A stretch of 64,000 nucleotides of DNA from an uncultured Chloroflexia bacterium (GCA_963849335.1 CAWKGZ010000011.1:81066-145065); one strand, 5' to 3'; counted from the first letter of the stretch, positions 5,451 through 36,873 are shown. Translations and numbers: made by a program. Notes: generated by a model from the letters alone, not told the origin.

Positions 5451-8400
5451 ATGTACGCTCGTATTAATCGAATCCTTTATTCTTTCCTGGTGATATTTGT
5501 GGTCGCATCCTGCGCCGCCGCGCCGGCAAGCCCCACCCGCGTCGAGACGCAAGATATAGCGGTAGAGACGCAAGATCTTGCGTCTCTGCATCCCACACCG
5601 TCGGTGGCGCCGGTGGTGACCGAGCCGCCGGTTACTGAGCCAGGCGACCTGGCGAGCAGCCTGGCGCCGCCCGGCATTGACCTGGACGTGACCTTCATCA
5701 GCCGCGATCCGATGTACTATATGTACTGCGTGGAGTACCCGGACGACCTGCCGCAGCTTTGCGCCGGGCACGAGGATGATCAGCACTGGCCTGAAGAGGG
5801 CGAGCTGGTCACCTTCACCGCCCACGTAGTCAACAAAGGTACCTCAACCAGCCCGGCGTTCGATTATGCCTGGACGATCGACGACACCACGGTGATGACC
5901 GGCACGCTGCCTGGACTGGCCTCCGGGGCTGAGCTAACCACCAGCTACCAGTGGGCCTGGGCGCACGAGATGGACGGTGAGAAGGTGCTGGATGACCATG
6001 ACGTGGGCTTCAGTGCTGACCCGGGGAACCTGATCGCTGAAAATTACGAGAACAACAACAGTCTTGAAGACCGCACCAACGCGCTGAGCTTCATCCTGTA
6101 CATCACGGCTGAGATGTACCAGGCATACAACGTGCCGGTCGATGCGCTTTACCCGTATTCGGCGGAGGACTGGCTGCAGAAGCAGATTGCGACAATCAAC
6201 ACCAACCTGGCGGCGGCAGTCTACCCCGCCACGCCCGAGGGGGCGACCGTGCGCGTGCGCATCGATACTATCGCAATCCGCGAGACGAACCCGGAGCCGG
6301 ACTTCCATCACGACGGCGGCTGGTTCATCAACGTAGACCTGCGCAAGGGCGCCAGCGCCTACTACGACCCGGCGACCGACATCGATTGGGGCCTGGTGCA
6401 CGAGCTGGCGCACCAGATGGGGCTGATCGACCTGTACGCCAGCAACATCTACCAGACCAGCGTCTTCGTGCTTAACCAGTTTGGGGGGCAGACCAACTTC
6501 GGCTTCGAGTGGCCGCGCGGCGGGATCATGGGCGGTGGAGACATCTACCCGTATACCGACTGGAACATGTACGACAGCCACACCGCCGGCGGGCTGAGCT
6601 CCAACTATGGCTACCGCAACGGTTACTATGGCGTCTACCAGTACGACATCCCCTGCAGAACAACTTCCTCGTGCTGGACAACCAGGGCAACCCCGCGCCG
6701 GGCGTGGAGGTGACGCTCTACCAACGCACGCCTGGCCTGTGGGACTGGACCGGACATACCGGGCTGGACAACGTGCCGGAGATCAGCGGCGCGTACGGAC
6801 AGCGCTGGCCTCTTCCCGCTGCCCAATCGCTCGGCAGAGGGCGGCGCCGTCACCCGCATCGGGCATGTGCTGCAGGACAATCCCTTCGGCGTGGTCGATT
6901 TCATCGGCGGGAACAACCGCTTCCTGGTGCAGCTCAGCAAAGGGACGCACGAGGAGTTCTTCTGGCTGGATATCACCGCCTTCAACCTGGCGTACTGGCT
7001 GGGGGATACGGACGAGCATACCTTCGTGATCAACTCGCATATACCGCAAACGGGCGCTCCAGTCGCCCCTATGCTGGAGCCGGTCAAGGTGCAAGGGTAT
7101 GCCAGTCGAGCTGTGCTGGCAGCCCAGCGCCTCAGCGGGGGTGACGCAGACCCTCCTCTACCACGCCAATCCCGCCGGATTACCTGTATACCCGGGTCGC
7201 CGAGCTGCCTGCCAGCCAACCCTGCTTCAGCGAAACGCTGCCGGGCGGCTGGTATGGCGGCTTCGTCTATGCTGCCACGGCAGTGAACGCCAGCGGGGTG
7301 GAGAGCGGCTTCAGCAACTCCGCCTGGGCGCCGCGGCTGATCAACCCGACGGCGGTGACCATCCTGCCGGATGGCAGGAGCCTGATCCTGGATGCGCAGA
7401 ACGGCTTTGCCATGCTGGAGCAGGATGCGGCGGGCCATTACCTGGGCAACCTGGGCTCGGTGCATTACCACCTGGAGCAAAGTCAGGTTCATGGCGCTGG
7501 ACGCCAACCAGCACCTGCTGTTCAGCCACCCTGGGGATTGGTATGTGCCGCGCCAATCGGTGCGCATAGCCGACCTTGATCTAACCCCGCTGCTGGAGTT
7601 CGGCGAAGCAGGTTCCAATCCGGGGCAGTTCAGCAACCCGGCGGGCGTGGCCTCATGGGGGCCGGCCTGCACCATCGACAGCCCGTACAGTGATGACCCG
7701 GAATCCCTGCTGCTGCTGCACTTCGACGGATCGTTCGACCGGCGCGCAGGGCGAGACCGGCACCCCCAGCGGGGTGGATTTCGTCGCCGGGCGCTTCGAC
7801 CAGGGCATTCACGTTGAGTACGGTGACCGGCTCTCGTACCCCACCCTCGGCAACCTGGACATGGCGGAAGGCACGGTCGAATTCTGGCTGAAGCCGGACT
7901 GGGACGGCGATGACGAGCAGTCGTACACCTTTTTCGAGATGGGCTATGATTGGTTCAACCGCATGCGCATCATGAAAGACGGCGCCAACAACCTGCGCAT
8001 CATGGTGTGGGACGGTGACACCGAGTACGGCGTGGCGTATAACGTGGGCTACTGGCAGGCTGGGGAGTGGCATCACATCGCCGCCACCTGGCAGGGCGAT
8101 ACCATTGCGTTGTATGCGGACGGCGTGCAGGTCGGTACGAGCGACGGCGTTACCATGCCGTCCTCGATGGTCGACGCCCTGTTTGTCGGCTCCGCAGCCC
8201 TGGATCCGCAGTACGCCCAGGGCGTGATCGACGAGTTCCGCATCAGCAGCGTGGCAAGGCTGGGCAACAGCCAGCAGTGCAACCGCATCCTGGTCGCCGA
8301 CAGCGGCAACCACCGCCTGCAGGCCTTCGACAGCCTGGGCGGCTTCCTGAGCGAGTTTGGCGAGCCGGGCAGCGGGGAGGGGCAGTTCAATAACCCACAG

Positions 8401-12768: not shown

Positions 12769-15364
12769 ATGTACAAGAAATCTATTTATTCGCTCGTGAC
12801 CATCATCATGCTTATCATCCTGGGCGTCTCGCCCGTCCTGGCAGGCAGTGTCGTCCAGATTGAGCCGCTGACGCCCGCCCCATCCGCCGAAACCGGCGTG
12901 ATCACCGATGAAACTCCCCAACTGTGGTTTGTCGAATTGACCAGCAATCCCACCGCCGATGGCACCTCCCTGACCACCGTGCGTGCCGAGAAGGCTGCCT
13001 TCCGCCAGAACGCCCGGCGCGCCTGGCCTGGTGTATACCGAGCGCTATGCCTTCGACACCCTGTTCAACGGTTTCTCGATCCGCATCGACCCCAGCCAGT
13101 TGGGCAAGCTGTCCCGCATCCCCGGGGTGAAGAACATCTACCCGGTGGAGACCATCCCCATGCCCACCGGCGAAATTGGCGATCCTGACCTGTTCACCGC
13201 CCTGAACATGACCGGCGCAGCCACGGCGCAGTCTGAGCTGGGCTTCACCGGCGAGGGCATCAAAGTCGCGGTGATGGACACCGGTATCGATGTCAACCAT
13301 CCAGCCTTTGGCGGGGATGGCGTGGCAGAGCTGAACAGCGCGTTCTTCTACGACAGCCCCCGGGTGCTTTATGGCTACGACCTGGTTGGGGATGCCTTCA
13401 ACGCTGATCCAGCCTCAGCATCCTACAACCCGGTGCCCTTGCCCGACCCGATCCCGGATGACTGCAATGGGCACGGCACGCATGTCTCCGGCATCATCGG
13501 CGCCAACGACGCCGACCAACGGCCTGAAGGGTGTGGCGCCGGAGGTGACCTTCGGTGTCTACCGCGTCTTTGGCTGCGAGGGTTCCACCACCTCCGATAT
13601 CATGATCGCCGCCATGGAGCTTGCCCTGGCGGATGGCATGCAGGTGCTTAACATGAGCATCGGCTCTGCCTACCAGTGGCCGCAGTACCCGACTGCCAAG
13701 GCTGCCAGCCGGCTGGTGAACAGCGGTATGGTGGTGGTGGCCTCGATCGGCAACAGCGGCGCCAATGGTCTGTACTCGGCTGGCGCCCCTGGCCTGGGTG
13801 ATAAGGTGATCGGCGTGGCTTCGTACGATAACACCCATGTCTTCCTGCCTTATTTCACGGTCAATGGGACGAATATCGGCTACATCACCATGACCTTCTC
13901 GCCCAACCCGCCCACCTCTGGCACGGGTGAGATCGTCGATATTGGGCTGGCTTGCGCCGCTCTCACGCCGGGCTGACCCTGACTGGTAAGGTGGCTCTGG
14001 CTGCCCGGGGTACCTGCGCTTTTGGAGTGAAAGCTGCCAATGCCATCAATGCTGGTGCGGTGGCTGTGCTCATCTCCAATAATGTTCCTGGCGTCTTTAA
14101 TGGCACACTGGGTGCTGCAATTGATGGTGTGACCCCGGTGGTTGGCATCTCACAAGCGGATGGCGTCTTCATCCGCGCCCAGGCAGCGCCGATCATCCTC
14201 ACCTGGACCGACCAGTTGGCTTCCTTCCCCAGCCCCACCGGCGGTTTGATCTCCTCCTTCAGCTCCTATGGGCTGTCGCCTGACCTGGCGCTCAAGCCGG
14301 ATATCGGCGCGCCCGGCGGCAATATCTACTCCAGCTACCCGCTCGAGCTGGGCGGTTATGCCACCCTGGGCGGCACCTCGATGGCCTCGCCGCACGTGGC
14401 GGGCGCGGTCGCACTGCTGCTGCAGGCCCGCCCCAACACACCTGTCCCAGGTTGTACGCGGCATCCTGCAGAACAGCGCCGATCCCCAGCTGTGGTGGGG
14501 CAACCCTGCACTTGGCTTCCTGGATAATGTCCACCGCCAGGGCGCCGGCATGCTGGATATCGATGATGCCATCCTGGCGACCACCAAGATCACACCGGCT
14601 AAGATTTCGACCGGTGAAAGCCAGGCTGGTTCGTACACACAGAAGCTGACCCTCGAGAACAGCTCCTCGGCGGCGGTGACCTATGACCTGTCCTATGTCA
14701 ACGCGCTTTCGACCGGTGGGGTGATTACACCCGCTTTTTACTCGTCAGACGCAAGTGTAACTTTCAATAGAGCGAGCGTGATGGTTGCCGGCGGGTGGAA
14801 AAGCAAGCGTGATGGCAACGATCCATCCGGCTACTGGCCCAGATCAAGCACAATACGGTGGTTACATCGTCTTCACCCCGCGGGGTGGCGGGCAGGTGTA
14901 CCGCGTGCCGTTTGCTGGTTTCGTCGGTGACTACCAGAGCATCCAGGTGCTCACCCCCACCGCCTACGGCTTCCCGTGGTTGGCCGTCAGCATCGGGGGC
15001 GCGTTCTATGGCCCGGTAACGCGGTCCAGCGGATTGGACCTATACCATGGTCGGGGAAGATATCCCCTACTTCCTGGTGCACTTCGACCACCAATCGGCG
15101 CTCTTCCGGGTGGAGATCTTCTCTGCCACCGGTCGAGCCTGGCACAAGGCGTACAATGAAACCTGGATGCCGCGCAACAGCACCAGCACCAGCTTCTTCG
15201 CCTTCCCGTTCGATGGCTATACCTTTGCCGGCAACCGCACCTACCAGGTGCCGGACGGCACCTACTATGCGCTGATCTCGGTGCTCAAAGCCAACGGCAA
15301 TTCCAATGTCCCCTCCGACTGGGAGACCTGGACCTCACCGCTGTTCGTCATCGATCGACCGTAA
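12769..15364 (+). CDS. Subtilisin-like S8 serine protease with PA and Fn3-like domains (Vpr-like; frameshifted)
   Basis: Catalytic motifs [23 protein letters not shown]; PA motif [11 protein letters not shown]; signal peptide. Confidence 0.92.
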
Positions 15365-15399: not shown

Positions 15400-15441
15400 C
15401 CCCACCCCTGCCCATGTCCGGGCAGGGGTGGGGTCTTTTTT
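15400..15441 (+). terminator. Rho-independent terminator
   Basis: CCCACCCCTGCCC-atgtcc-GGGCAGGGGTGGG followed by a T-tract. Confidence 0.85.
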
Positions 15442-15465
15442 AACCTTAAAATATTCATTTTGGAC

Positions 15466-15494
15466 TTGTAGATTTAGAACATCTGTGCTATAAA
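15466..15494 (+). promoter_or_regulatory. Sigma70-type promoter with LexA-like operator in the spacer
   Basis: TTGTAG-17 bp-TATAAA with extended TGn. TAGAAC-ATCT-GTGCTA (15475-15490) is one mismatch from the GAAC-N4-GTTC SOS box. Confidence 0.65.
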
Positions 15495-15558
15495 GTTATC
15501 ACACTGGCGTGGGAAAAAAACAGCGCCAGTGTTTTTTAACCCCCACGCCAGTCACCTT

Positions 15559-15939
15559 ATGACTGACGAAAACCCAACCCCCTCCAAACGCCGCCGCGGC
15601 GCTCCACCCGGCAATCTCAACGCCCTCAAACACGGCTTCTACTCGCGCAACTTCGGCACGATGGAGCTGAAGGACCTGGATGCCATGTTGGACAGCGGGC
15701 TTGACTCGGAGATCAACCTGCTGCGCGTGGCGATGCGACGCCTGCTGACCCTTACCGCGGAGAATACGGATGTCGATACCGGCATTCACCTGCTGACCGT
15801 GCTGGGCAGCACTGCTACCCGGCTGGCAAACCTGCTGCGCACCGAAGTGCTGCTGGGCGGTGACCGTAAGCAGAGCCTCTATAACCAGTTGGTTGACGCC
15901 ATCGATGCCATGGCAAAGGAGAAGTATGGCGAACCATGA
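15559..15939 (+). CDS. Terminase small subunit-like protein
   Basis: RRRGAPPGNLNALKHGFYSR motif typical of TerS N-termini; lies upstream of TerL. Confidence 0.7.
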   Translation: MTDENPTPSKRRRGAPPGNLNALKHGFYSRNFGTMELKDLDAMLDSGLDSEINLLRVAMRRLLTLTAENTDVDTGIHLLTVLGSTATRLANLLRTEVLLGGDRKQSLYNQLVDAIDAMAKEKYGEP

Positions 15940-16136
15940 GCCTGCCTGTCCCGTGATTGCCGCGGCGTTGAAAGTGCAGGGCGACCTGGACGAACTGGCG
16001 GCCTCGATGCAGCGGCTGCGCCGGGCGCTGCGAAAGTGCGCCAACTGCCCACAGAAAGATTGCCCTTTGTTGTTGGAATTGTCCACAGCGATCAGCAATG
16101 CACTGATGGAGCTGACCGAAGGCATGGGATGTATGA
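15926..16136 (+). CDS. Small hypothetical helical protein with Cys cluster (CANC..C); end inferred across an indel
   Basis: AAGGAG RBS; inferred TGA overlaps the ATG of the next gene. Confidence 0.5.
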
Positions 16137-17686
16137 GCAGAACACTGGAGAGCTTACGCAGTGGAATTGCCGAATTTCAAAGATTTAATTATCCTGGCTT
16201 ACAGCAACATGGCGAATTTCACCGAAGCTGCCAGCGACCTGCACCTGCGCGGCTACCAGCTACCCGTGGCGGAGGCAATCATCGACTTCGGTCATCCACA
16301 AGCGGGGATTGTCGTTTGTGGTGATCTTTCCACGGCAGTCGGGGAAAAACGAGCTGCAGGCTCAGATAGAATGCTACCTGCTGACCAGTTTAAGTGGGCG
16401 GCATTGCGAGATGGTCAAGGTCAGCCCAACGGGAAAGCCGCAAAACCGGAATGCGATGCGCCGGTTGGAAACGGGTTCTATCCCAGAACCTGGTGGCTAT
16501 CACTTTGGGGTGGGGAAAAGAAGTCGGGTACATCTATAAAGTGAGGAACGCCAGGATGGTTTTCTTATCCGGTGCACCGGAATCCAATATCGTTGGGCGC
16601 TACCGCCAGCCCACTTGCTCGAAGTCGACGAAGCCCAGGACGTCTCGATCGACAAGTACGACAAAGAGATCGCCCCCATGGCCGCCTCCACCAACGCCAC
16701 CCGTGTATTTTGGGGCACCGCCTGGACCAGCCGCACGCTGCTCGCCCGTGAGCTGGCAGCAGCCCAGGAAGCCCAACGCCTTGACGGTCAGCAGCGTGCC
16801 TTCATCATGACCGCAGATGATGTCGCTCGGGAAGTACCCGCCTACGGCGCATTCGTCCAGGAACAGATCGCCAAGCTGGGACGCAATAACCCCATGGTGC
16901 GCACTCAGTTTTTCAGCGAGACCATTGACGCAGAAGGCGGCATGTTCAACAAGCAGCGCCAGGCGCTTATGCAGGGACACCACCGCCAGCAGGCTGCGCC
17001 GCTGGCAGGCCACATCTACGCCATCACCATTGACGTGGCCGGTGAAGATGAGTCCGCCCGCGATGAACTCAGCACCAGCCTGGTCAAACCCAGGCCGGGA
17101 CAGCACCGCCCTCACCATCTTTGACGTGGATACCAGCACCCTGGATGATCCCTCTCATCGGCCGCCCCACCTACCAGGTGGTAGCCCGCCACCAGTGGAC
17201 AGGCATCAAGCATTCCAGTTTATTCGCCAGGTTGACCGCCATCATAGATCATTGGTCGCCAGCCTGGCTTGTCATTGACTCCACCGGTGTTGGTCAGACC
17301 TTGACCAGCTTCCTGCTGGACAGGTACCCCACCATTACCCTGCCTTTCGTCTTCACCAGCAGCAGCAAATCCACCCTGGGCTGGAACTTCATCGCCCTGG
17401 TTGAAACCGGGCGCTACAAGGAGTATGTATCCACCGGTGATGACCAGCTGCATTCAGAATTCTGGAGCCAGGTGGAGAACTGCCAGTACCACATCCTGGA
17501 CGGCCCCGGCCAGATGATGCGCTGGAGCGTGCCAGACGGCACCCGTGACCAGCGCACCGGTGAGCTGGTCCATGATGACCTGGTTATCTCCGCCGCCCTG
17601 GTCAGTGAGCTAGACGCCCAGCCCTTCGGGCCTGGCCATCTCCAAAGTAATCCAATCCCCAAACCTGTTTGAAAACAAGGACTTCT
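16133..17686 (+). CDS. Terminase large subunit (frameshifted)
   Basis: LRGYQ adenine-binding motif, FPRQSGKN Walker A, LEVDEAQD Walker B, nuclease motifs IDVAG, VIDSTGVG, HDDLVIS. Confidence 0.85.
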
Positions 17687-17706
17687 AAAATGTTTCCCCT
17701 AAAAAA

Positions 17707-17750
17707 TCCTTTGTGTTCCTTCGTGTATCCTTCGTGTCCTTTGTGTGAAA
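17707..17750. repeat. CTT(C/T)GTG short tandem repeat array; paired inverted array at 19173-19262
   Basis: CTTTGTGTTCCTTCGTGTATCCTTCGTGTCCTTTGTGTGAA; at 19173-19262 CACCAAG/CACAAAG units face CTTCGTG/CTTTGTG units. Confidence 0.7.
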
Positions 17751-17763
17751 CGGTCTGCGTCCC

Positions 17764-19137
17764 ATGCTAAAACGCCTCTTCTCCCGCAAGTCCTTCACCT
17801 CCCCCGTCTCCGTCCGCATAGATGACGACCACGCCGGCTGGACATCCACCACCGGCCGTCCGCACGACCGGGACTATGGAGAAATCCAGGAGCAGTACAC
17901 AGACACCTTGCTCGCCTGGCGCAAGAACCCCATCGCCTGGCGCATCATCAGCATCACCACGGACTATGTGATCGGCAAGGACTTCTCTCTCACCTCCCCC
18001 TTCAAACCCCTGGATACCTTCATCAAGGAATTTTGGAACCATCCTAAGAACCGGATGGATCTTCGCCTCACCGGCATGTGTGATGAGCTGAGCCGATCAG
18101 GTGATCTGTTTGTGCTGCTCTGGCGCAATCCCATTGACGGTATGTCCTACCTGCGCTTCCTCACCAAAGACCAGATCCGTGGTATCCGTTCGGCACCCAC
18201 AGATTGGGAGACAGAGATCAGCTATGAGGTACCGGGCTAACCCATGTGTCAGCCCATAGACCCCATTGTCTATCTCTCCCCGGATGCAGAAGATTCCATA
18301 GAGAGCCAGGCCGTTTGTTTGCACTACGCCGTCAACCGTCCCATCGGTGCCCTGATGGGTGAGTCTGACCTGACCACCATGATCCCCTGGTTGCTGCGCT
18401 ACATCCGCATGCTGGAAGATCGGGTGCGCCTGCATTGGGCAGCCCGCGCCTTCCTGTACCTGGTGACCGTCCCTTCCAACAAGATTGAAGCCAAGAGCGG
18501 GCAGTACCAAACCCAACCAGAAATCGGCAGCATCATCGTCAAGGATGAGTCTGAAAAATGGGAGACGCTAACGCCCTCCCTTCGGGGGGCGGATGCCAGC
18601 CATGACATGAAGTCGGTGCGTAACATGATTGACGCCGGAGTCGGCTACCCACCCCACTGGAGGGGTGAGGGTGGTGATGTCAACGTAGCCACCGCAGAAG
18701 CCATGCAAGGCCCACCAGAGAAGCACCTTGCCCGCCGTCAGCAGTACTTCTGCTTTATCATGCAGGATATCCTCTTCAACGCCTACAACCGGGCGGCCAG
18801 CTTGCGCAAGCTGCCGCCCTTGCCCACCACCAACTATGAGAAGCTCTTCAAGATCAACGCCCCGGACGTCTCGGCGCGTGACAATGGCATGCTGGCCAAC
18901 AGCGCCACCGGTATCGCTCACGCCATGCAGCAGCTGGAGTCAATGCTCCAGGGCAACACCAATGATGAATTCAAACGCCTGGCCGCAGACCTGGTCCTTA
19001 CCTTCGCCGGTGAGATCCCGGAAGAGCGCGACATAGCCAAGCTCATCAAACAGCCCCCACCCCCAGCCCCGGTCATCACCCCCAAACCAACGCAACCCGA
19101 GACCCGAGAATCACTAGGGCAGACCATTGCTACCTAA
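17764..19137 (+). CDS. Phage portal protein-like (in-frame TAA at 18238-18240)
   Basis: Position after TerL; AWRKNPIAWRII, ELSRSGDLF, GxGYPPHW..NVATAEAM segments resemble portal proteins; both ORF halves share a frame. Confidence 0.7.
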
Positions 19138-19290
19138 GGAACCCAAATGACCCAACAAGACCAAAGTAAGTTCTCACCAAGGACACCAAGGAAACACCAA
19201 GATCACAAAGAAACCTTAAATTCTTCGTGTCCTTTGTGTGTACTTTGTGTCCTTTGTGTGAACCGCTCTTAAGCCCTAAAGGAGTAACCC

Positions 19291-20031
19291 ATGGAAAGAT
19301 TCCGCTCATTCTCCACCCCATCCAATCATGACCAGGTTGACCCCACAGCCGGCGTCATCCACGCCTGCAGCGTCGCCGTAGCCGGTGAAGCCGCAGGCCA
19401 CCAACTCATCTTTGACCAGACCACCCTGCGCCAGCTGCTGGACATCGGCAACAGCCGCCAGGGCGGCATCAAGAGCCGCTTCACTCACCCAGGGCTGAGT
19501 GAGGACGGCCTGGGTAAATTCCTCGGCCGCATGCGTAACTTCCGCTTCGCCGGTGATCGCCTGGTCGGAGACCTGTACCTCTCCAAGAGCAGCGCCAACA
19601 CACCCCATGGCAATCTCAAGGACTACATCTTGAACCTTGCCGCAGAAGACCCGGCAGCGTTCGGCATCAGTGTCGTGGTTGACCTGGAGAAGTTTTGGGT
19701 AGACCAGGACGGCAAGGAGATCATCCGACCAAAGAACCGCCCACACAACCCCATGTACAAATACCCGGTCGCACGGATCCTTTCTTTCGTGGCAGCAGAC
19801 GCCGTTGACGAGCCAGCCCTCAACCCCCAAGGCCTGTTCAATGCCCATGGCAGCCTGGTCGCCAGCAACCAGGTCGCTGATGAAGTTTTCCAGGAGCTGG
19901 ACAACTATATCCAATACCTGGGCTTTGACACCCCCAAAGCCTATCAATTCGCCTTGCGTTACTTCCAATCTCGCGGCGTTGACCCCAACGCTACGGGACG
20001 GACGTCGGGCGGCCTAGGTGCCGTGGCATGA
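19291..20031 (+). CDS. Prohead protease-like protein
   Basis: Between portal and capsid; SRFTH, FGISVV and ADAVDEPALN fit an HK97-type His/Ser protease pattern. Confidence 0.65.
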   Translation: MERFRSFSTPSNHDQVDPTAGVIHACSVAVAGEAAGHQLIFDQTTLRQLLDIGNSRQGGIKSRFTHPGLSEDGLGKFLGRMRNFRFAGDRLVGDLYLSKSSANTPHGNLKDYILNLAAEDPAAFGISVVVDLEKFWVDQDGKEIIRPKNRPHNPMYKYPVARILSFVAADAVDEPALNPQGLFNAHGSLVASNQVADEVFQELDNYIQYLGFDTPKAYQFALRYFQSRGVDPNATGRTSGGLGAVA

Positions 20032-20085
20032 CCAACCCGCTAATCCGTTATCCATCCGTTTACCAATTTCAACCAAAGGAGAACC

Positions 20086-21451
20086 ATGCAATGTCAGAAT
20101 CAGCAAGGAACCTACATCAATGACCAGCCGGCACAGCCGGCGCCGGCCGCCGTAGGGGCTGACCCACGTGCTGAGCCCTCCGCAACCGGATCAAACCTCC
20201 CTCCAGATCAAAGCCATGCAGGAAGAAATCTTCGGCCTCAAGATCGCCCTCACCCACGCCGCAGAGCAGAACGTCATCAAGATGAGCCCCACGCCCCCCC
20301 GTGAGTCCCGTCTCACCATGGGACTCTCCGGCCTGGATCACTTCCAATCCGCCTTTGATTGGGTCTTCGGTGTGGACGGCGCACGCCTGCCCCCGCCCGA
20401 CCTGCGCCGCACGGATGGCCTGTACCGCATCCTCACCGGCGATCTCAACTGGCACGGTGTCTTTGACCCCGCCTATGCCTTCGCCGGTGCCACCACCACC
20501 ACCCTGGCCGACCTGGCCGCCAACGCCATGAACAAGGTCATCGTGGAGCTGTACAACCGTCTCATGCACTACCGCTGGTATGAGATGATCACCAGCGTGC
20601 AGCCCACGGACGGCACCCTGCAGGACATGGCCTGGATCCAGTTCGGCGGTATCGCCAACCTGCCCACGGTGGCAGAAGGCGCAGCCTACACTGAGCTGGA
20701 CGTGGCGGACAGCAAAGAGTCGGATGCCTTCGTCAAGTACGGTGGCTACGTCGGGATCACCGACAAGATGATCCGCAATTCGGAGATCGCCAAGATGCAA
20801 GCCATCCCCCGCGCTCTCACCATCTCCGCCATCCAGACCCGCTCCGCTGCCATCGCCGCCATCTTCACCAGCAACAGCGGTGTAGGCCCCACGCTTGACC
20901 AGGACACCACCGCCCTGTTCCACACCAACCACGCCAACCTCGCCACCACTGCATACTCGTGGTCAGCCTGGAAAGCCGCCCGCCTGGAATGCGCCAAGCA
21001 AACTGAGCTTGGCAGCAGCAAGCGCCAGATGCTCTTCCCCAAGTTCCTCTTGCTGCCGGCTGATCTGTATGACCAGGCGCTGATTGACTTCGGTTACGGC
21101 GCCGGTCCCGGCGGTCGCCCCGGTGAAGGTACCACCACCAGCTTCCAGGACGTCAACCCCTACGCCATGGATCGCCCCGGTGATCCTCGCCCCATCCCGG
21201 TCGCAGTTCCTGAGTTCACGGACACCGGGGATTGGGCCTACCTGGTTGACCCCAAGATCGCCCCGGTCATCTGCATGGCCTACGCCTCCAACCCCGGCGG
21301 ACGTGCCCACCCGGCCCCCGAGCTGTTCACCGTCACCAGCCCGCTCGCCGGCCTGATCTTCACCAATGACACCATCCCCATCAAGATCCGGGATTGGTTC
21401 GCCTACGGTGTCGCCACCTACCGCGGCATCGGCAAGCGGAATGTTGCGTAG
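20086..21451 (+). CDS. Major capsid protein (Mu gpT-like, HK97 fold); N-terminus frameshifted
   Basis: ANAMNK, LPTVAEGAAYTE, KYGGYVGIT, ALFHTNHANL, PKFLLLP and IKIRDWFAYGVATYRG motifs; AAGGAG RBS. Confidence 0.85.
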
Positions 21452-21454
21452 CCT

Positions 21455-21488
21455 CCCCCCTCCCTGCAGGGAGGGGCCGGGGGTAGGT
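21455..21488. repeat. REP-like hairpin CCCCTCCCTGCAGGGAGGGG
   Basis: One mismatch to 61081-61114. Confidence 0.75.
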
Positions 21489-21599
21489 GCTCTTCTGGTT
21501 ATCCAGCGCGCCCCCCTCGCGCTTGATAATATTTACCGGTTACAGCCTGGCGGAGGCCGCTCCCTTCCGCCAGGCCAACCATAAGGATCAATTCAAGAA

Positions 21600-21638
21600 A
21601 TCTGTGTTCATCTTTCTTTTATCGCGTTCATCTGTGTA
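21600..21638 (+). repeat. ATCTGTGT(T/C)CATC repeat array; further copies at 22757-22797, 23137-23174, 24111-24166
   Basis: Same unit as the inverted repeats at 57364-57416 and 58916-58968. Confidence 0.8.
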
Positions 21639-21652
21639 AAAGGTATTTACCC

Positions 21653-21967
21653 ATGGACTTACAAAACTTTGTCGTCACCCCAGCCGTCATGCTCGTGCTC
21701 GTCTTTGGCATCGTGGAATTCATCAAAGCCTTTGGCGTCACGGGCAACAAGCTGCGCCTGATCGCCCTCTTCGTCGGCCTGATCATCGCCACCGTCTACA
21801 AGCTGCGCGAGATCTTCCCAGCCGCCCAGGTCTATATTGACCTGGTCTTCTTCACCCTCGCCTCCGGCCTCTCCGCCTCCGGCCTCTATGACTTCCTCAA
21901 GAAATTCCGCCTCTCAGACGTCTCCCCCACCGAGCCACCCTATCTAACCCTGATCACTGATCACTGA
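21653..21967 (+). CDS. Holin-like membrane protein
   Basis: Small protein with 2-3 TM segments; IVEFIK and GLSASGLYD motifs seen in SPP1-type holins. Confidence 0.65.
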   Translation: MDLQNFVVTPAVMLVLVFGIVEFIKAFGVTGNKLRLIALFVGLIIATVYKLREIFPAAQVYIDLVFFTLASGLSASGLYDFLKKFRLSDVSPTEPPYLTLITDH

Positions 21968-22002
21968 CTACTGTATCCCACTGATCACTGACTACTGATC
22001 AC
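21950..22002. repeat. Heptamer tandem repeats CTGATCA/CTGACTA
   Basis: Seen directly; overlaps the holin stop codon. Confidence 0.7.
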
Positions 22003-22025
22003 TTTCCAACAAGGAGAACCCAACC

Positions 22026-22382
22026 ATGCAAGGCACCCTCTTCACCCAATCTTTCCACATCCCCGGCACCCTCACCGCCAACCTCAACATCCGCTGGACA
22101 GTCCCCAAAGATTGCCAGCTCCTGCATGTCAGCGCCAGCAACAGCGCCGCCACCAGTGGCACGTTCATCCTGGGCACCAGCACGAATGATGACGCCTACC
22201 TCACCACCGCGGACATTGGAGACAGCAACGTCCCCAATGAGTTTGACAAGGATAACTTCGTTGATACGGAATACCCCCACATCGTGGATGGCACCATCTT
22301 CGTCATCACCGTGGACTATGACGGCGCTGCCGGCACCGCCGCCGCCAACCTCACCCTGGTCCTCACCTTCGCAGAAGGATAG
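22026..22382 (+). CDS. Putative capsid decoration/structural protein
   Basis: Beta-rich 118 aa, AAGGAG RBS, close to the capsid gene. Confidence 0.55.
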   Translation: MQGTLFTQSFHIPGTLTANLNIRWTVPKDCQLLHVSASNSAATSGTFILGTSTNDDAYLTTADIGDSNVPNEFDKDNFVDTEYPHIVDGTIFVITVDYDGAAGTAAANLTLVLTFAEG

Positions 22383-22486
22383 AGGTAGGGGCGAACCTAT
22401 GTGTTCGCCCACTCCTCTCCTCGGGCCATGCCTGGCGGGTGCACCTCCCACCCGCCAGGCAAACCCAAAAAAGGATGTAATCCTGA

Positions 22487-22752
22487 ATGGCTAAACAACT
22501 CATGCCTATACAAACCCTACTTGGATGCCATCAAAGCCCTCGCCATTGACGTGCCCATCATGCGCACAGAGCAGGATGAAAATGGAGCCGTCACCATCTA
22601 CCTGTACGGGGGTGCAGTCCACCACTGGCCCCCGGAAGGCGAGCTCACCATTCAGAAGATCACAGATCCTTTCCCCTATGACAAAGCCCCCCGTGACCCG
22701 CACCGCCCTGCAAAAGTCGCAGCGTGCCAAAAAGTCGCAGACAAAAGCTTAA
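22487..22752 (+). CDS. Hypothetical phage protein (frameshifted; ends uncertain)
   Basis: AAAGGA RBS before ATG; coding-like core AIDVPIMRTE..VTIYLYGG. Confidence 0.4.
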
Positions 22753-22829
22753 GCACTATCCGTGTCCATCCGCTTTTATCTGTGTCCATCTGTGTTATTC
22801 CCTGCCTCCCTCTCCCAAGGAGTTAATCC

Positions 22830-23114
22830 ATGAACCCATCCGCATCCTACTACAACAACAACGTTGACGCCCTTGTCCACACCGGCCCCTGTGAGCTGAT
22901 CGGCGTCATCCTCACGGACGCAGACGCCGGAACACTCAGCATCCACAACTGCGTCAGCGGCCCGGTCGCTGGCAACAAGGTGCTGGAAGTCAACGTAGCC
23001 ACCACCGTACCCACCCAGGTCGTCATGCTTGCCGCCCCCATCACCCTCTCAGCCGGCCTGTACGTGGACGTGGGCACCGCCATCGCCGGATCGTACTGCA
23101 TCATCTGGCGCTAA
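22830..23114 (+). CDS. Small beta-sandwich phage structural protein (paralogue of 26277-26564)
   Basis: TGPCELIGVI...GTLSIHN...LSAGLYV; AAGGAG RBS. Confidence 0.6.
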   Translation: MNPSASYYNNNVDALVHTGPCELIGVILTDADAGTLSIHNCVSGPVAGNKVLEVNVATTVPTQVVMLAAPITLSAGLYVDVGTAIAGSYCIIWR

Positions 23115-23206
23115 ACACAGGTTTAAATTAAAAACATCTGTGTTCATCCGCCCTTATCTGTGTCCATCTGTGTCAATCTCTGCCTTCCTCTCTCAAGGAG
23201 TTCCCC

Positions 23207-23611
23207 ATGAACAAAAAACTTAAAGCCGTCAAGATCAAGTTCTTCCCCTGGTACTGGGGCTACCCCACCAAGCCCCCTATCCCCGCCATGAAGATCCTCA
23301 ACCGGGATCAGCAGGTGCGGGATGGTGCCAGCATCAAGGGCAAGGTGATCGCCACCCTCAAGAAAGACTCCATTGTCACCGTGGATACCGCGGAGCATGA
23401 CCTGGCCTGGACCCGGGTGATCAGCGTCAATAACTATGACCCGGTGCCCCCGCTCTGGATCAGCGCCCAGGCGGATAAGCCAGAAGCAGATCGGGAAGGC
23501 TGGCTGGATGACACAGCGCTTGACCCCTTCGGGGAGCAGCCGCCCGCCACCCGCCCCCACCGGCAAGGTCAAGTGGATCATCACCGCCACCATTGAAAAG
23601 GTTGAGGAGTA
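23207..23611 (+). CDS. SH3b-like domain protein (3' indel)
   Basis: VRDGASIKGKVIATLKKDSIVTV..W...GW pattern; AAGGAG RBS. Confidence 0.55.
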
Positions 23612-23615
23612 ACCC

Positions 23616-24032
23616 ATGGCATCTTTCACCAAGTTCTATTGCCTCGTTGAAGACCTGGCTGAGAAGAAACACAACCTCGGCAGTGACACGCTGACCGTCG
23701 CCCTGTGCGCAGCCGCCAACGCTCCGGTGCTCACCAACACCGTCCTGGCCAACCTCACCCAGATCAGCTATACCAATCTTTCCAGCCGGGTGCTGTCAAC
23801 CGTCTCATCCAGTCAAACCACCGGCACTTACAAATTGGTGGTCAGTGACCTGACCCTCACCGCCAGCGGGGGTGCGGTCGCCGCCTTCCGCTACATTTGC
23901 ATCTACAACGAGACCGCCACCAATGATGAGTTGATCGGCTACTATGACTACGGCAGTGACCTGACCCTGGCAGATGGGGAGAGTCTCACCCTGGACTTCA
24001 ACCTCACCAACGGCCTGCTGCAGATCAGCTAG
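23616..24032 (+). CDS. Phage structural protein
   Basis: HNLGSDTLTVAL, LTASGG, FRYICIYN and LIGYYDYG..TLADGESLT resemble a common virion protein family. Confidence 0.65.
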   Translation: MASFTKFYCLVEDLAEKKHNLGSDTLTVALCAAANAPVLTNTVLANLTQISYTNLSSRVLSTVSSSQTTGTYKLVVSDLTLTASGGAVAAFRYICIYNETATNDELIGYYDYGSDLTLADGESLTLDFNLTNGLLQIS

Positions 24033-24176
24033 TCTCAGTATCCCGCGCCCAATAGCGCATTAATAGCGCATTGGATAACGCCTGGCTGCCAGTGCATCTG
24101 GCAGCCAGGCAACACAGATAAAAACCATCTGTGTTCATCCGCTCTTATCTGTGTTCATCCGTGTTAAGGTCTGCGT

Positions 24177-26241
24177 ATGTCCTCAGTCACGCGCTACCCC
24201 ACCACCAACGCCGTAGGCACCACCGGCTTCACCAACGCCGGCAATGCCTACTCGTCTAATGACTCTTATGCCACCGCAGCTCCTGGCACCCTCAACACCA
24301 TCTCTTCTTACTTTGGCGGCTTTGATTTCGCTTCCTACATCCCCTCAGGCGCAACCATCAACAGCGTCACCGTGTATTGTGAACGCAAATTCAGCACAAC
24401 GGCTTCTAACGCCAGCTCAACACTCCGCCCGTACAATCTCACCACCGCCTTAGCCGCAGAGAACGAGAACACCACAGAGCCAACCAGTGACACAGAGTAT
24501 TCGGTCAACTTCGGTGCCCTGGGTGTCACGGATGTAAGGTCGGCAGACTTCCGCATCCTGGTCGGCGCTAAGCGTGGATCAGGTTCCACCGGCTACACCT
24601 ACTCCCTGGATGTGGTCTACGTCACCGTAGACTACACCAGCGGCGCATATTCGTTGACCTGTGATTACGCCAGCCTTGCCCTCAGCGGCCAGGCCGCTTC
24701 ACTCTTCCGCAGCCTCAAGCTGTCCTGTGGAAATGCCAGTCTTACCCTCACCGGGCAGATCGCTGCGCTCCTGCGCTCCAGGATCGTCGCTTGTGCCGTG
24801 GGTTCTCTTTATCTCGTCGGTCAATCAGCCACCCTCACCTATACCCCGGTCGGTACAAATTACCCGCTCACCTGTGACCATGCAACCTTAACTCTCTCCG
24901 GTCAAGCAGCTGCGCTCAACCGGGGCAGGTATATCCTTTGCGGCGCGGTTTATCTTTCTGCCACCGGGCAGATCGCTGCGCTCCTGCGGTCCAAGATCGT
25001 CGCTTGTGCCGTGGGTTCTCTTTATCTCGTCGGTCAATCAGCCACCCTCACCTATACCCCAGGCTCAACTTATTCGCTCACCTGTGACCATGCCAGCCTG
25101 AACCTCACCGGCCAGGCATCAACGTTAATCCACACAGCGTTCCTGGTTTGTAATGTTGCATCCATCACCATTGCCCCTCAAAGTGTAACGTTCAGCGTCA
25201 ATCAACCGCTGACCTGTGACCATGCCAGCCTGGTCATCACCGGTCAATCGGCAGACTTGATCAACACACTTATCCTGGTATGTAACGTTGCATCCATCAC
25301 CGTCGCCCCTCAAAGTGCAACCCTCGCGGTCAATCATCCGCTCGCCTGCACGTATGCCGGTATTACCATCTCCGGCCAGGACATCACTTTTGAGATCGGT
25401 CATGTGCTGATCTGCACGTATGCCGGTGTCACTCTCACCGGCCAGAACATCACTCTTTTCTACCTTTCAGAAACCATTATCTTCCCCTGCCTGTACGGCA
25501 GTTATAATGTTTCTGGCCAATCCGTTCAATTCTTTGTGGAATTATGGGAGCCATCAGGTGACATGATCACATTAGGCACTCTCCTCACTCGTATCCAGTC
25601 CGCTCTCGGTGACACGTCCGGCGCCATCTGGAACCGGACAGAAGTTATCTGGCCGTTCGCTTGTGACGCTATCCGTGATTTCCCCATCCTGCGCCCCAAG
25701 ACAAACGCCTACACGCTCACAGAAGCCGGGCACAGCTTCACCCTGCCCTCTGATTTCCGCAAGCTGATCTACGTGGAGTTCCCGCCCTATCAAGACCCAC
25801 CAGAATACTTGCAGCGCAAGGCCCATCTCGGGACTGACTTCTTTGGTGAAGATGGTTTTTGTGATGTGGACCGGGACTATGACTCCGGGGGTGATTACAT
25901 CCTTTGGATCTCAAATAGCCTGATCGTGGGTGACATCGTTATTGTGCGCTACCTGGCCACCCACACCACAGAGTTCGCCAATGAGTATTCTTACATCACC
26001 ATTGAAAATCAGTACGTCCAGGTGATCATCAATCACGTGGTGCTGATGTGCTACCAGGAGCGCTTGGCGCACCCAGCTGCAGGATCCCACCGCCCACACT
26101 TCCACCATCCAGCAAATGTCTGACGCGGTCAAGACCGCAGAGATCAATTACCTTGATCATCTCAAGCGCGCCCAGGAAGATATCGCCAACTCCCAGCGTG
26201 TGTCAGGTTGGAAGGTGGATAAGCATGATCGGATCTATTAA
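24177..26241 (+). CDS. Repeat-containing fibre/spike-like protein fused in frame to a head-adaptor-like domain (from Met 25563; indel near 26070)
   Basis: ~23-aa repeats LTCDHASLxLTGQxAxL; C-terminal TLGTLLTRIQSALGD..W..DAIRDF..LPSDF; continues in a shifted frame to TAA 26241. Confidence 0.6.
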
Positions 26242-26276
26242 CTTTCAAACTTGTAAACGGTCAAACGTTTAATGCC

Positions 26277-26564
26277 ATGACAGACATTCAGCAGGTAAAA
26301 ACTTCTAGTGCCAGCATCGTTACCGGTCGGGGTGTGTTATTCGGTATCATCGCCAGCGTATCCGCTGCCAGCAGCCAGGCCACCTTGACCTGCTATGACA
26401 ATACTTCCGCCAGTGGAACTGTTTTGTTTCAAATTGAATTATTTAGTGAAGCAGATCCACTGGTGTTGTTCTTCAGTGATCAATACGCTCCACGCTTCTC
26501 CACCGGTCTTTATCTGGCGTTAGACGCCAATCTGATTGTCAATATCTGGGCCAGCGAGCGTTAA
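26277..26564 (+). CDS. Small beta-sandwich phage structural protein
   Basis: TGRGVLFGII..TLTCYDNTSASGTVL..RFSTGLYL. Confidence 0.6.
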   Translation: MTDIQQVKTSSASIVTGRGVLFGIIASVSAASSQATLTCYDNTSASGTVLFQIELFSEADPLVLFFSDQYAPRFSTGLYLALDANLIVNIWASER

Positions 26565-34424: not shown

Positions 34425-35441
34425 CTAATAGATCAATTCTTCCGCCTTGCTGCTCACCCGTTTCCTGAACACCCAATACGTCCAGCCCTGGTAAGCCAGC
34501 ACCACCGGCACGAAGATCAGCGCTACGATGGTCATCACCTTCAGCGTGTAAGGTCCCGATGCCGCGTTGTAGATATCCAGGCTATTCGCCGCTTCGGTCG
34601 AGGAGATGATCACGCGGGGGAACATAATAGCGAAGCAGGAGATCACCGCCAGGGCGATGGTCAGGCCGGTGAAGACGAACGCCCAACCGGGGCGGCGCTG
34701 CACCAGGAAGTAGCCAGCCACCCACACGGCGACAAAGGACAAAATGGGCAGCGCCACCACAAAGCGCGCGGCGTGGGTGGTCAGGTCGGTATAGATAAAG
34801 GTCGTCGCCAGCAGCGCCAGCAGGATGACTGCCACCGGAGGCCATAACTTGCGCGCCAGCGTCAGGGCACGGTCGGCTAATTTGCCGCTGGTCTTCAGGC
34901 TGAGGAAGATCGCCCCGCTCAGGGCGAAGGCGCCGATCGCGGACAGTCCGCCGAGCAGCCCGTAGGGGTTGAGCAGCGTCCACAGCGTGCCGGTGTAGGC
35001 CATATCTGCGTTCACCGGCACGCCCTTCGCCAGGTTGGCGAAAGCCACCCCCAGCAGCAGCGCAGCAACAAAGCTGCCGGTGAACGTCGCCCAATCCCAC
35101 AGCGCCCGCCATTTGAGATTGGCATCTTTGCTGCGGAACTCGAGCGCCACGCCGCGCAGGATGAGGGCGAACAGCAGCAGGAAGAAGGCCGGGTAAAAGC
35201 CGCTGAATAGCGTGGCATACCAGTGGGGGAAAGCGGCAAAGGTGGCGCCGCCGGCGGTGATCAGCCAGACTTCGTTGCCGTCCCAGTGCGGGCCGATGGT
35301 GTTGATCACCGCCCGTCGCTCGGTGTCGCTCTTGCCCAGGAACGGCAGCAGGATGCCGACGCCGAAATCAAAACCTTCCAGGAAGAAGTAGCCGACATAC
35401 AGGATAACGATCAGGATGAACCAGAGCAGGTTGAGGTCCAT
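34425..35441 (-). CDS. cydB: Cytochrome bd quinol oxidase subunit II
   Basis: LEGFDFGVG, IGPHWDGNEVWL, AAFPHWYA. Confidence 0.95.
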   Translation of the reverse strand: MDLNLLWFILIVILYVGYFFLEGFDFGVGILLPFLGKSDTERRAVINTIGPHWDGNEVWLITAGGATFAAFPHWYATLFSGFYPAFFLLLFALILRGVALEFRSKDANLKWRALWDWATFTGSFVAALLLGVAFANLAKGVPVNADMAYTGTLWTLLNPYGLLGGLSAIGAFALSGAIFLSLKTSGKLADRALTLARKLWPPVAVILLALLATTFIYTDLTTHAARFVVALPILSFVAVWVAGYFLVQRRPGWAFVFTGLTIALAVISCFAIMFPRVIISSTEAANSLDIYNAASGPYTLKVMTIVALIFVPVVLAYQGWTYWVFRKRVSSKAEELIY

Positions 35442-35443
35442 GG

Positions 35444-36843: not shown

Positions 36844-36873
36844 AGTCTATTCCTCCAAACGGGTATCTCGAGC

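Follow-up and report, generated by a model that had tools for sequence, protein, structure and literature searches.

A candidate gene transfer agent-like particle operon in an uncultured Chloroflexia bacterium and its relatives

Introduction

Gene transfer agents (GTAs), such as the RcGTA type of Alphaproteobacteria, BaGTA, VSH-1, Dd1 and VTA, are known from few lineages, and to our knowledge all of them encode complete tails. Their particles take up host DNA largely at random, in fragments too short for the GTA cluster as a whole, are produced under host regulatory control and deliver DNA to recipient cells by a tail. Among the papers listed on gene transfer agents in Chloroflexi or Anaerolineae, an element like the one discussed here appears in no title or abstract opening. 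We analyzed a stretch of 64,000 nt (the window) from an uncultured Chloroflexia bacterium (GCA_963849335.1 CAWKGZ010000011.1:81066-145065; contig C11 of genome G000, whose assembly is an estimated 88% complete). The window carries a co-oriented cluster of phage-like packaging and head genes that an initial annotation, made from the sequence, had read as a candidate host-controlled, SOS-inducible, head-only DNA-packaging particle, with a decayed prophage as the main alternative. Relatives of this cluster occupy one conserved locus in the genus; we refer to copies at that locus as canonical (reference example, L019) and to the copy in G000, which lies elsewhere, as the window copy.

Capsid-forming satellites offer a second comparison. 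By definition, cfPICIs carry their own packaging and capsid genes plus a head-tail adaptor and connector, and in those of Firmicutes the capsid tends to be fused to the prohead protease; their core also comprises an integrase, a regulator and a primase-replicase, while holin and tail genes are forbidden in the SatelliteFinder model (PMC10085698). A further source describes cf-PICIs as releasing DNA-filled tail-less capsids that are later fitted with phage tails (10.1101/2025.02.11.637232). The tail of phage SU10 contains portal, adaptor, nozzle and needle (PMC9509320).

The cluster resembles GTAs in being a chromosomal set of structural and packaging genes without integration or replication genes, in having a host-type promoter and a lysis function for release, and, for the genus-wide cluster but not the window's own copy, in its conserved locus, vertical descent and purifying selection. 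It differs from them in its capsid family (PF25209, with the protease fused to the capsid), in its host phylum, Chloroflexota, and in its tail: known GTAs have a full one, whereas here, judging from genes, an adaptor and a fibre-like protein alone were recognized. Like cf-PICIs, the cluster has its own terS, terL, portal, capsid/protease and head-tail adaptor. Unlike them, it has no integrase (there is no PF00589 match on C11), regulator or primase; it has a holin (phrog_1299), a GH25 endolysin in canonical copies and its own variable tail-fibre-like protein, and it is fixed and co-diverges with its host rather than being mobile. The likeness to SU10 (Kuravirus) lies in an adaptor that scores above the PF24175 cut-off in relatives and in the adjoining fibre-like gene, but no nozzle or needle family was matched in the cluster. 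In contrast to an intact temperate prophage, the cluster has no recognized integrase, att sites, repressor, replication genes or complete tail.

Results

A gene cluster held at one host locus across a genus

The genus set comprised 22 genomes including G000, leaving 21 other species. Capsid homologues with 65-76% identity were found in 16 of these 21 species, and in 25 of the 61 genomes searched in all. Wherever the downstream end of the cluster was assembled, in 18 of 18 species, it adjoined the same host genes, encoding a 395-aa protein (dn395) and a MaoC-like dehydratase (dn215). Three of the species (G005, G013 and G018) scored negative for the capsid because their contigs stop inside the cluster, and in each of them the adaptor-g92 end adjoins the same 395-aa gene. 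G012 contributed only a 2.6-kb contig, and neither cluster nor flank was found in G006 (84% complete) or G021 (63% complete).

The canonical cluster measures ~10-11 kb. Its invariant gene order is terS-like gene, two small open reading frames (ORFs), terL (~497 aa), an endolysin with GH25 and SH3 domains (PF01183, E 5e-32), portal, holin and protease-capsid (~630 aa); these are followed by g118, a ~70-aa ORF, g121, a variable region of 240-500 aa, an SU10_adaptor protein (PF24175, 28.2 bits versus a cut-off of 27) and g92. Upstream stand CMD and ABM, and downstream dn395, dn215, a multicopper oxidase and YcxB. These flanks are identical in kind across all loci with enough contig, and those of L019 are ordinary host enzymes. 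The initial annotation had proposed looking across Anaerolineae genomes for the same minimal gene set, allowing that its homologues might always sit in complete prophages. That set was indeed recovered, and the genus homologues, rather than belonging to complete prophages, form a minimal cluster at one locus.

Two observations concern the edges of the canonical cluster. The 395-aa gene after g92, on the opposite strand (e.g. L019:4192-5376; L013-L031), invariably neighbors the canonical cluster and is missing from G000; it has just a weak discoidin-like match, and although counted here as host flank it could belong to the system. In the short-read assemblies G005, G007, G012, G013, G018 and G020, contigs (C183, C141, C179, C126/C298, C187 and C29) often end inside the cluster, commonly near the variable fibre region or the capsid, which may reflect strain variation in the fibre or intergenic repeats.

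Inheritance and selection

Maximum-likelihood trees were built for 14 loci from the concatenated terL, portal, protease-capsid, adaptor and g118 proteins and from the concatenated flank proteins. A nine-locus clade was identical in the two trees, (L021,(L020,L017)),((L014,L026),(L018,(L015,(L013,L019)))), and branch lengths were alike; the trees differed solely in the other five loci, where support was weak. Median ratios of nonsynonymous to synonymous substitution (dN/dS), restricted to pairs with dS < 1.5, were 0.14 for protease-capsid, 0.15 for terL, 0.17 for portal, 0.21 for adaptor, 0.24 for g118 and 0.45 for g92, compared to 0.08-0.18 for flank genes (dn395 and up205 were judged on those pairs alone). 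These comparisons, which the initial annotation had recommended, indicate that the canonical cluster is vertically inherited, co-diverging with its host flanks and under purifying selection, with ratios of 0.14-0.24 in its main genes. Because the trees are congruent and dN/dS is low, the canonical cluster looks like a long-resident, selected element and not a decaying one.

Gene content of the window cluster

The features of the window copy and of its 5' border are as follows.

15400-15443, + strand: intrinsic terminator of the host subtilase gene (hairpin 15400-15433 plus T-run), 14-bp stem with 12 GC pairs
15461-15494, + strand: promoter module; conserved TTGGAC upstream, -35 TTGTAG at 15466-15471, 17-nt spacer, TGTG, -10 TATAAA at 15489-15494
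15501-15537, + strand: leader hairpin ACACTGGCG...CGCCAGTGT plus T-run, terminator-like, as read from the sequence; presumed function
15559-15939, + strand: terS; phrog_1889, E 1e-5; 57% identity to the terS-like gene of L019
15860-16324, + strand: small Cys-rich ORF(s) in the terS-terL gap; frames uncertain, no family above threshold
16206-17672, + strand: terL; PF17289 Terminase_6C, 23 bits (cut-off 22.6); phrog_5909; five frame changes
17764-19137, + strand: portal; phrog_10963, E 9e-10 and 9e-18 (two pieces); 59% identity over 445 aa to a relative
19291-20031, + strand: prohead protease-like domain, 246-aa ORF; S77-like by ESM Atlas look-up of a relative
20168-21451, + strand: HK97-type major capsid; PF25209 Phage_capsid_4, E 1e-25; phrog_4523 'major head and protease protein'/phrog_133
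21653-21967, + strand: holin; phrog_1299, E 7e-11; 51% identity to the holin of L019
22026-22382, + strand: g118, 118 aa, conserved; 3' of the capsid gene in nearly all relatives
22401-22826, + strand: small ORF; resembles, by eye and with no alignment run, a translated stretch upstream of the G029 terS
22830-23114, + strand: paralogue of the g92 jelly-roll protein; g92 profile, E 3e-8, and alignment
23207-23596, + strand: 129-aa ORF; weak SH3_3, PF08239, 18.9 bits (below the cut-off of 27); no catalytic lysin domain
23616-24032, + strand: 138-aa protein; phage family phrog_644, E 2e-10
24177-26240, + strand: fibre-like N-terminal part, repeat-rich to ~25560, plus SU10-like adaptor at 25563-26240
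26277-26564, + strand: g92, 95 aa; predicted eight-strand jelly roll (AlphaFold 2, AF2, pLDDT 91.8); accompanies the adaptor in relatives

The terS start was set at the ATG at 15559 by homology to relatives. Matches to Pfam and PHROG families bear out terS, terL, portal, capsid and holin as first annotated. The protease, named at the same time, fared less well: its ORF has no Pfam or PHROG match, and only a language-model look-up places it, as S77-like, the homologous N-terminal 215 aa of a relative lying near Peptidase_S77 clusters (score 0.95, 27/30 matches). Neither g118 nor g121 received a PDB, Pfam or PHROG assignment; profiles of g118, g121, g92, adaptor and protease-capsid returned nothing meaningful from PDB sequences, and hhalign found no relation among g118, g121 and g92.

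The borders likewise stand as annotated. Upstream, on the + strand, a host gene stops at 15364; its pieces match Peptidase_S8, Inhibitor_I9 and PA domains, which identifies it as a subtilase, and its terminator precedes the cluster promoter. On the downstream side come an AT-rich membrane ORF of 77 aa, a kinase of the APH family (PF01636, opposite strand) and a 1602-aa NTPase-TPR protein. The annotated absence of integrase and att repeats holds as well: tyrosine integrase (PF00589) has 0 matches on C11 and 5 elsewhere in G000, and no direct repeats bracketing the flanks of the window copy were found. There is no tRNA in the window. Pfam and PHROG recognized neither an integrase nor a repressor, replication, tube, sheath or tape-measure gene in the cluster; the 20-kb loci examined, like the cluster, had no integrase, AlpA/MerR-type regulator or primase-replicase by these families.

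Pyrimidine-rich intergenic repeats punctuate the window cluster, 67 nt long at 22758-22824, 23136-23202 and 24127-24193 and 40 nt long at 17717-17756 and 19230-19269. They carry ...ATCTGTGTCCATCTGTG... / ...TCCTTTGTGTG... and lie directly 5' of the ribosome-binding sites of several cluster genes. Contigs from other metagenomes jump between them (joints 17745->22824 and 19258->24178), and host genes behind the promoter module described below have similar motifs in their leaders.

Adaptor, fibre and the tail

The 648-aa ORF at 24177-26123 ends in an adaptor-like part. Its PF24175 score is just 17.2 bits (cut-off 27), and the genus-adaptor profile matches it at E 2e-51. The initial annotation had described an adaptor fusion; the adaptor-like C-terminus is thereby confirmed, but the in-frame fusion itself may be an artefact, as the adaptor has its own ATG (25563) within an ATGA overlap motif and fibre and adaptor are separate genes in relatives. 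The fibre-like part of the window copy contains internal repeats of 66-132 nt.

In L019 the variable gene before the adaptor, which occupies the position of this part, encodes 503 aa and was modeled with AF2 (pLDDT 92.1; alignment of 37 homologues) as a set of beta-sandwich domains. A viral library gave as its best match to the model the 'Tail fiber protein' of Pseudoalteromonas phage J2-1 (E 1.6e-18, TMq 0.55), and in the PDB the model matched carbohydrate-binding modules, so that the predicted fold is tail-fibre-like and the protein a probable receptor-binding fibre. The model of g92, one of the proteins that the initial annotation had labeled decoration-like, had weak PDB matches only. The cluster is read as encoding several such small beta-sandwich proteins. 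With a tail-fibre-like fold and an SU10-type adaptor, the cluster appears to encode a minimal adsorption device, and the earlier label 'head-only' fits it only in part.

Tail genes elsewhere in the genome had been suggested as a further place to look. The sheath family PF04984 was present in 1/22 genus genomes and the tape-measure family PF10145 in 0/22; there is therefore no unlinked long tail conserved in the genus.

Promoter and leader

In the window copy, TGTGc and TATAAA span 15484-15494, and the spacer region holds TAGAACATCTGTGCTA (15475-15490). The promoter is conserved nearly base for base in the window copy and in 14/15 canonical copies (TTGTGG/TTGTAG, TTAGAACA-N3-GTGC, TATAAT). It is a host-type module and not specific to the cluster: there are 35 sites in G000 and 37, 37, 19, 20 and 38 in five relatives, versus 0-1 in a reversed control. 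When 20 ORFs behind the module were tested, 14 had Pfam matches, to diverse host genes; gyrA, a DnaE-type polymerase, pheS, bipA, a GAF-PAS histidine kinase, an M14 peptidase, GH32 and APH kinases are among the genes that follow it.

SOS induction had been proposed for the cluster. Its LexA-like box, GAACATCTGTGC, is one base off the operator type of this organism's lexA (GAAC-N4-GTTC); the lexA promoter itself carries GAACGAATGTTC. The second arm of the module is always GTGC, with a G that is fixed in all copies and is also part of the TGTG motif 5' of the -10. A distant relative, L090, has a perfect GAACATTTGTTC. Given the mismatch, and given that the module precedes ~35 host loci including gyrA, pheS and bipA, SOS control of the cluster seems unlikely as stated.

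Most module copies, that of the window included, have a hairpin and T-run directly 3', and in the window CCCACGCCAGT (~15543-15553), downstream, is complementary to the 5' arm of the leader hairpin. Promoter and leader together make a module of ~80 nt (window 15461-15540): ATTTTGGACTTGTGAAAC-C/TAGAACAnnTGTGCTATAAT, then a GGACTGGCG...CGCCGGTCC hairpin and T-run. Further sites in G000 include C7:65746, C9:157433, C12:285590 and C14:168210. Possibly the module marks an attenuator-bearing regulon, or else it is a repeat that carries a promoter.

In canonical clusters its place is taken by a leader of 172 nt (L019:17347-17526, - strand, and 14 other loci) whose identity across 15 species is 85%, above the conservation of the coding genes. 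It would form a terminator-like hairpin and a 16-bp long-range closing helix; a compensatory change was seen in 1/43 predicted pairs, the alignment being too conserved for a test of structure. Across the window and four loci no Rfam family reached its gathering score; the best match of the canonical leader was sX7 (E 0.37). We regard the 172-nt leader as a candidate new cis-regulatory RNA. Both there and at the hairpin that follows most module copies, read-through might be conditional (attenuation or antitermination).

The family beyond the genus

A survey of GTDB with one genome per species yielded 287 candidate stretches, 209 of which held a relative of the protease-capsid protein. By record titles, 75 of the best 80 of these 209 belong to Chloroflexota (Anaerolineae/-ales/-aceae, Caldilineales, Ardenticatenaceae, Promineifilum and 'Chloroflexia') and 5 to other phyla. 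Even the distant members L178, L189 and L194, with 37-40% capsid identity, are co-oriented blocks of 8-12 kb containing terL, portal, protease-capsid, g118, g92 and adaptor, with oppositely oriented genes at both ends. Clusters of 7-12 kb thus appear to form a family that is widespread in Chloroflexota.

IMG/VR contained 149 related stretches, mostly short contigs; PHROG gave no useful tail or head names for nine genes of the IMG/VR contig L073 and one of L085. Among the isolated phages of INPHARED, the capsid matched 1 record (Microcystis phage Mae-JY22, 34% identity) and terL matched 4 records of 2 Bacillus phages, too distant to inform.

Reading frames of the window copy

Several genes of the window copy are not intact as assembled. 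Aligned to intact relatives, terL is spread over three frames with five frame changes, near 16290, 16465, 16600, 17070 and 17150; its apparent in-frame TAA at 16537 sits in a short stretch truly read in another frame. Protease and capsid occupy two frames, implying at least one frame change, whereas relatives have a single fused gene of ~630 aa (one open frame of 627-686 aa in 14/17 full-length same-genus capsid matches). The adaptor has a frame change near 26055.

Contigs from four public sequencing runs were compared to the window; they left 24.6-25.6 kb without cover, and the DNA shares of public runs matching the window were all <= 0.10, with no RNA run among those listed. Contigs of independent runs, 98-99% identical to the window, differ from it mostly by indels: one has 14 substitutions and 5 gaps over ~986 nt (15442-16427), another 1 substitution and 1 gap over 331 nt, and 2-4 independent runs share indels at 13511, 13975 and 14443. 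No long homopolymers were found at the indels. The neighboring host subtilase is broken up likewise: Peptidase_S8 positions 1-71, 70-183 and 181-259 fall on successive ORFs that lie in different frames. ORFs of >= 300 aa cover 66% of bases genome-wide but 0-8% in window bins from 12 to 20 kb; since cover is normal elsewhere and near zero there, 12-20 kb is a local bad patch. The terL segments, capsid and adaptor are open in their proper frames, free of stops and 50-67% identical to intact relatives. On these grounds (open segments, split subtilase, public contigs differing by indels, local gap in long ORFs), the frame breaks are most likely assembly errors for the most part, as the initial annotation had suspected in asking for indel polishing. 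Its reading of the ORFs themselves holds in part, terL, protease-capsid, adaptor and portal being broken as assembled. Over its first 5 kb (15.4-20.2 kb), the window copy is of poor assembly quality.

Stop-codon recoding, as a possible explanation of the in-frame TAAs, was dismissed: the TAA of terL is out of frame, and other cluster genes end at ordinary stops.

Host genes also seem split over several frames at 12769-15364 (the S8 subtilase described above), 6500-7800 and 35400-36850. These suggest local patches of indel errors, which may also account for the 88% completeness estimate.

A repeat in the window

At ~42475 of the window (C11:123540) and at 12 other places in G000 there is a repeat with the ends ...TAGAACAAAGTTGCGATAAAAGATGAG... 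/ ...TAGAACATAGTTGCGATAAAAGATGAG..., which elsewhere in G000 occurs in oppositely oriented pairs ~1.4 kb apart. In the window it adjoins a 475-aa ORF (42552-43979, - strand; bin GC skew -0.31) and is probably an insertion sequence.

Discussion

The gene content, conservation, synteny, co-divergence, selection, promoter type and tail-fibre-like fold described above are consistent with a domesticated, GTA-like particle operon of phage origin, the best-supported reading and one that we consider about as apt to be right as wrong. From these genes we infer particle formation, packaged DNA, delivery and a trigger. Transcription would start from the host-type promoter and pass the terminator-like leader; capsids would then assemble and be filled by the element's own terminase with chromosomal DNA, in situ, as proposed because there is no excision or replication module. 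Adaptor and fibre would close and decorate the portal vertex, and particles would be released by the holin, together with the GH25 endolysin in canonical copies. The host-controlled packaging particle of the initial annotation thus survives as an operon of packaging and structural genes without integration, replication or long-tail genes, but the copy on which it was based is not the conserved one.

A number of points weigh against this reading, and several of them concern the window copy. It does not sit at the conserved locus, since its own flanks match no canonical flank; the canonical flank genes were not found in G000, save one at 58% identity on another contig. Its neighbors, a Kelch protein and the APH kinase, lack orthologues in the genus and so represent accessory surroundings, for which reason an empty site for this locus is not definable. 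No homologue of the GH25 lysin was found in the window cluster or anywhere in the 88%-complete G000 assembly. In a capsid tree of 93 rows, the window copy falls outside the genus clade (23 rows), in an unresolved group with G029, from another genus, and the IMG/VR stretches L041/L043. The TAA at 18238 in the portal lies in a variable stretch, was not traced to an error and is possibly a genuine nonsense codon. For protease, capsid, holin, g118 and fibre, the GC skew at third positions is -0.4 to -0.7 (C-ending codons); of 2371 long G000 ORFs only 1.2% reach <= -0.40, and this extreme could reflect recent foreign origin. The remaining points are general. The flank tree was built from genes linked to the cluster and does not amount to an independent species tree; purifying selection is equally expected for an active phage or satellite; and the GTA-like reading is drawn from genes, with no particle, packaged DNA or transfer observed. 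Finally, no tube, nozzle or needle was recognized in the cluster by Pfam or PHROG, and entry of DNA into a recipient is left unexplained, although a nozzle is possibly hidden among the small unassigned proteins.

The window copy is accordingly a divergent, relocated member of the family. Its holin is 3' of the capsid gene, versus 5' of protease-capsid in canonical copies, and the gene order of the G029 and L041/L043 copies differs again. GC skew is -0.16 over the window cluster (17000-26000) and near zero for canonical clusters as wholes, and capsid genes of other lineages are also skewed. The window copy possibly arose by a deep vertical split followed by relocation, or by separate acquisition. 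GyrA of G000 is 79-81% identical to that of all other genus species and 76% identical to that of another genus; G000 is about equidistant from all other species of its genus, so that either origin may apply.

The alternative that survives best, though we think it unlikely, is a capsid-forming island resembling satellites of the cf-PICI kind, which would make its own capsids and adaptor, package DNA and rely on a helper phage for tails and possibly for an activator. Head genes, terS/terL, portal and adaptor are all present while tube and nozzle are missing from the matches, the gene set and the protease-capsid merger recall cfPICIs and those of Firmicutes (PMC10085698), and capsids without tails could leave the cell and acquire foreign tails in the way reported for cf-PICIs (10.1101/2025.02.11.637232). 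A promoter followed by a leader terminator would suit an external antiterminator, and the window copy lies in an accessory region. What argues against this alternative is that the integrase, regulator and primase-replicase of the cfPICI core are lacking from the cluster, that it has a holin, accompanied in canonical copies by an endolysin, and that the cluster supplies its own hypervariable tail-fibre-like protein. Moreover, its locus is fixed and it diverges together with host genes throughout the genus, in which markers of long tails are nearly absent (sheath 1/22, tape measure 0/22).

We consider it improbable that the window copy is a decaying prophage remnant with real frameshifts and a nonsense codon, its lysin and tail genes lost and no present function. 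The broken frames of terL, protease-capsid and adaptor as assembled, the portal TAA, the missing GH25 lysin and the accessory surroundings away from the conserved locus would all suit such decay. That such remnants exist is illustrated in G000 at C12:75694-76016, where a promoter module is followed by a lone 98-aa ORF (75723-76016) homologous to the terL C-terminus (profile E 7.5e-11), possibly a relic of another copy of the cluster. Against decay stand the open, stop-free segments with 50-67% identity to intact relatives, the like splitting of the neighboring subtilase, the indels by which near-identical public contigs differ (at 13511, 13975 and 14443 in 2-4 independent runs) and the confinement of the long-ORF gap to 12-20 kb, all of which point to error. 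For the family as a whole, the decayed prophage favored as the main alternative in the initial annotation is weak in the face of purifying selection and a fixed locus; for the window copy it keeps the portal TAA.

An autonomous, very small short-tailed temperate phage with unrecognizable replication, integration and tail genes is very hard to credit: g118, g121, g70, g90, g101 and phrog_644 are without assigned function and related contigs are listed as viral in IMG/VR, but ~10-11 kb between conserved host genes leaves few small unassigned ORFs for such functions, the locus is the same and co-divergent over the genus, and att-like repeats were not found at the borders of the window copy.

Returning to the GTA-like operon, a more specific proposal is held only tentatively, with the balance somewhat against it: that this is the first GTA-like system of Chloroflexota. 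It would be an operon of ~10 kb whose capsids bear only an adaptor and a hypervariable carbohydrate-binding fibre, without tube, sheath or recognizable nozzle; it would be fixed in the genus, occur in compact form in Anaerolineales, Caldilineales and Ardenticatenales, and be wired through the 172-nt canonical leader RNA into a host regulon of ~35 operons with promoter and attenuator.

Wetlands, sediments and wastewater sludge are rich in Anaerolineae, which are difficult to culture. If the GTA-like reading is true, a conserved, selected, tube-less capsid operon would constitute a testable route of horizontal gene transfer in these bacteria and would widen the known range of phage domestication. 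If the element is instead a fixed satellite, the range of capsid-forming satellites would come to include a new phylum as well as a lifestyle without excision. Separately, the conserved leader RNA, together with the shared promoter/attenuator module, suggests that these bacteria have a regulatory system not yet described.

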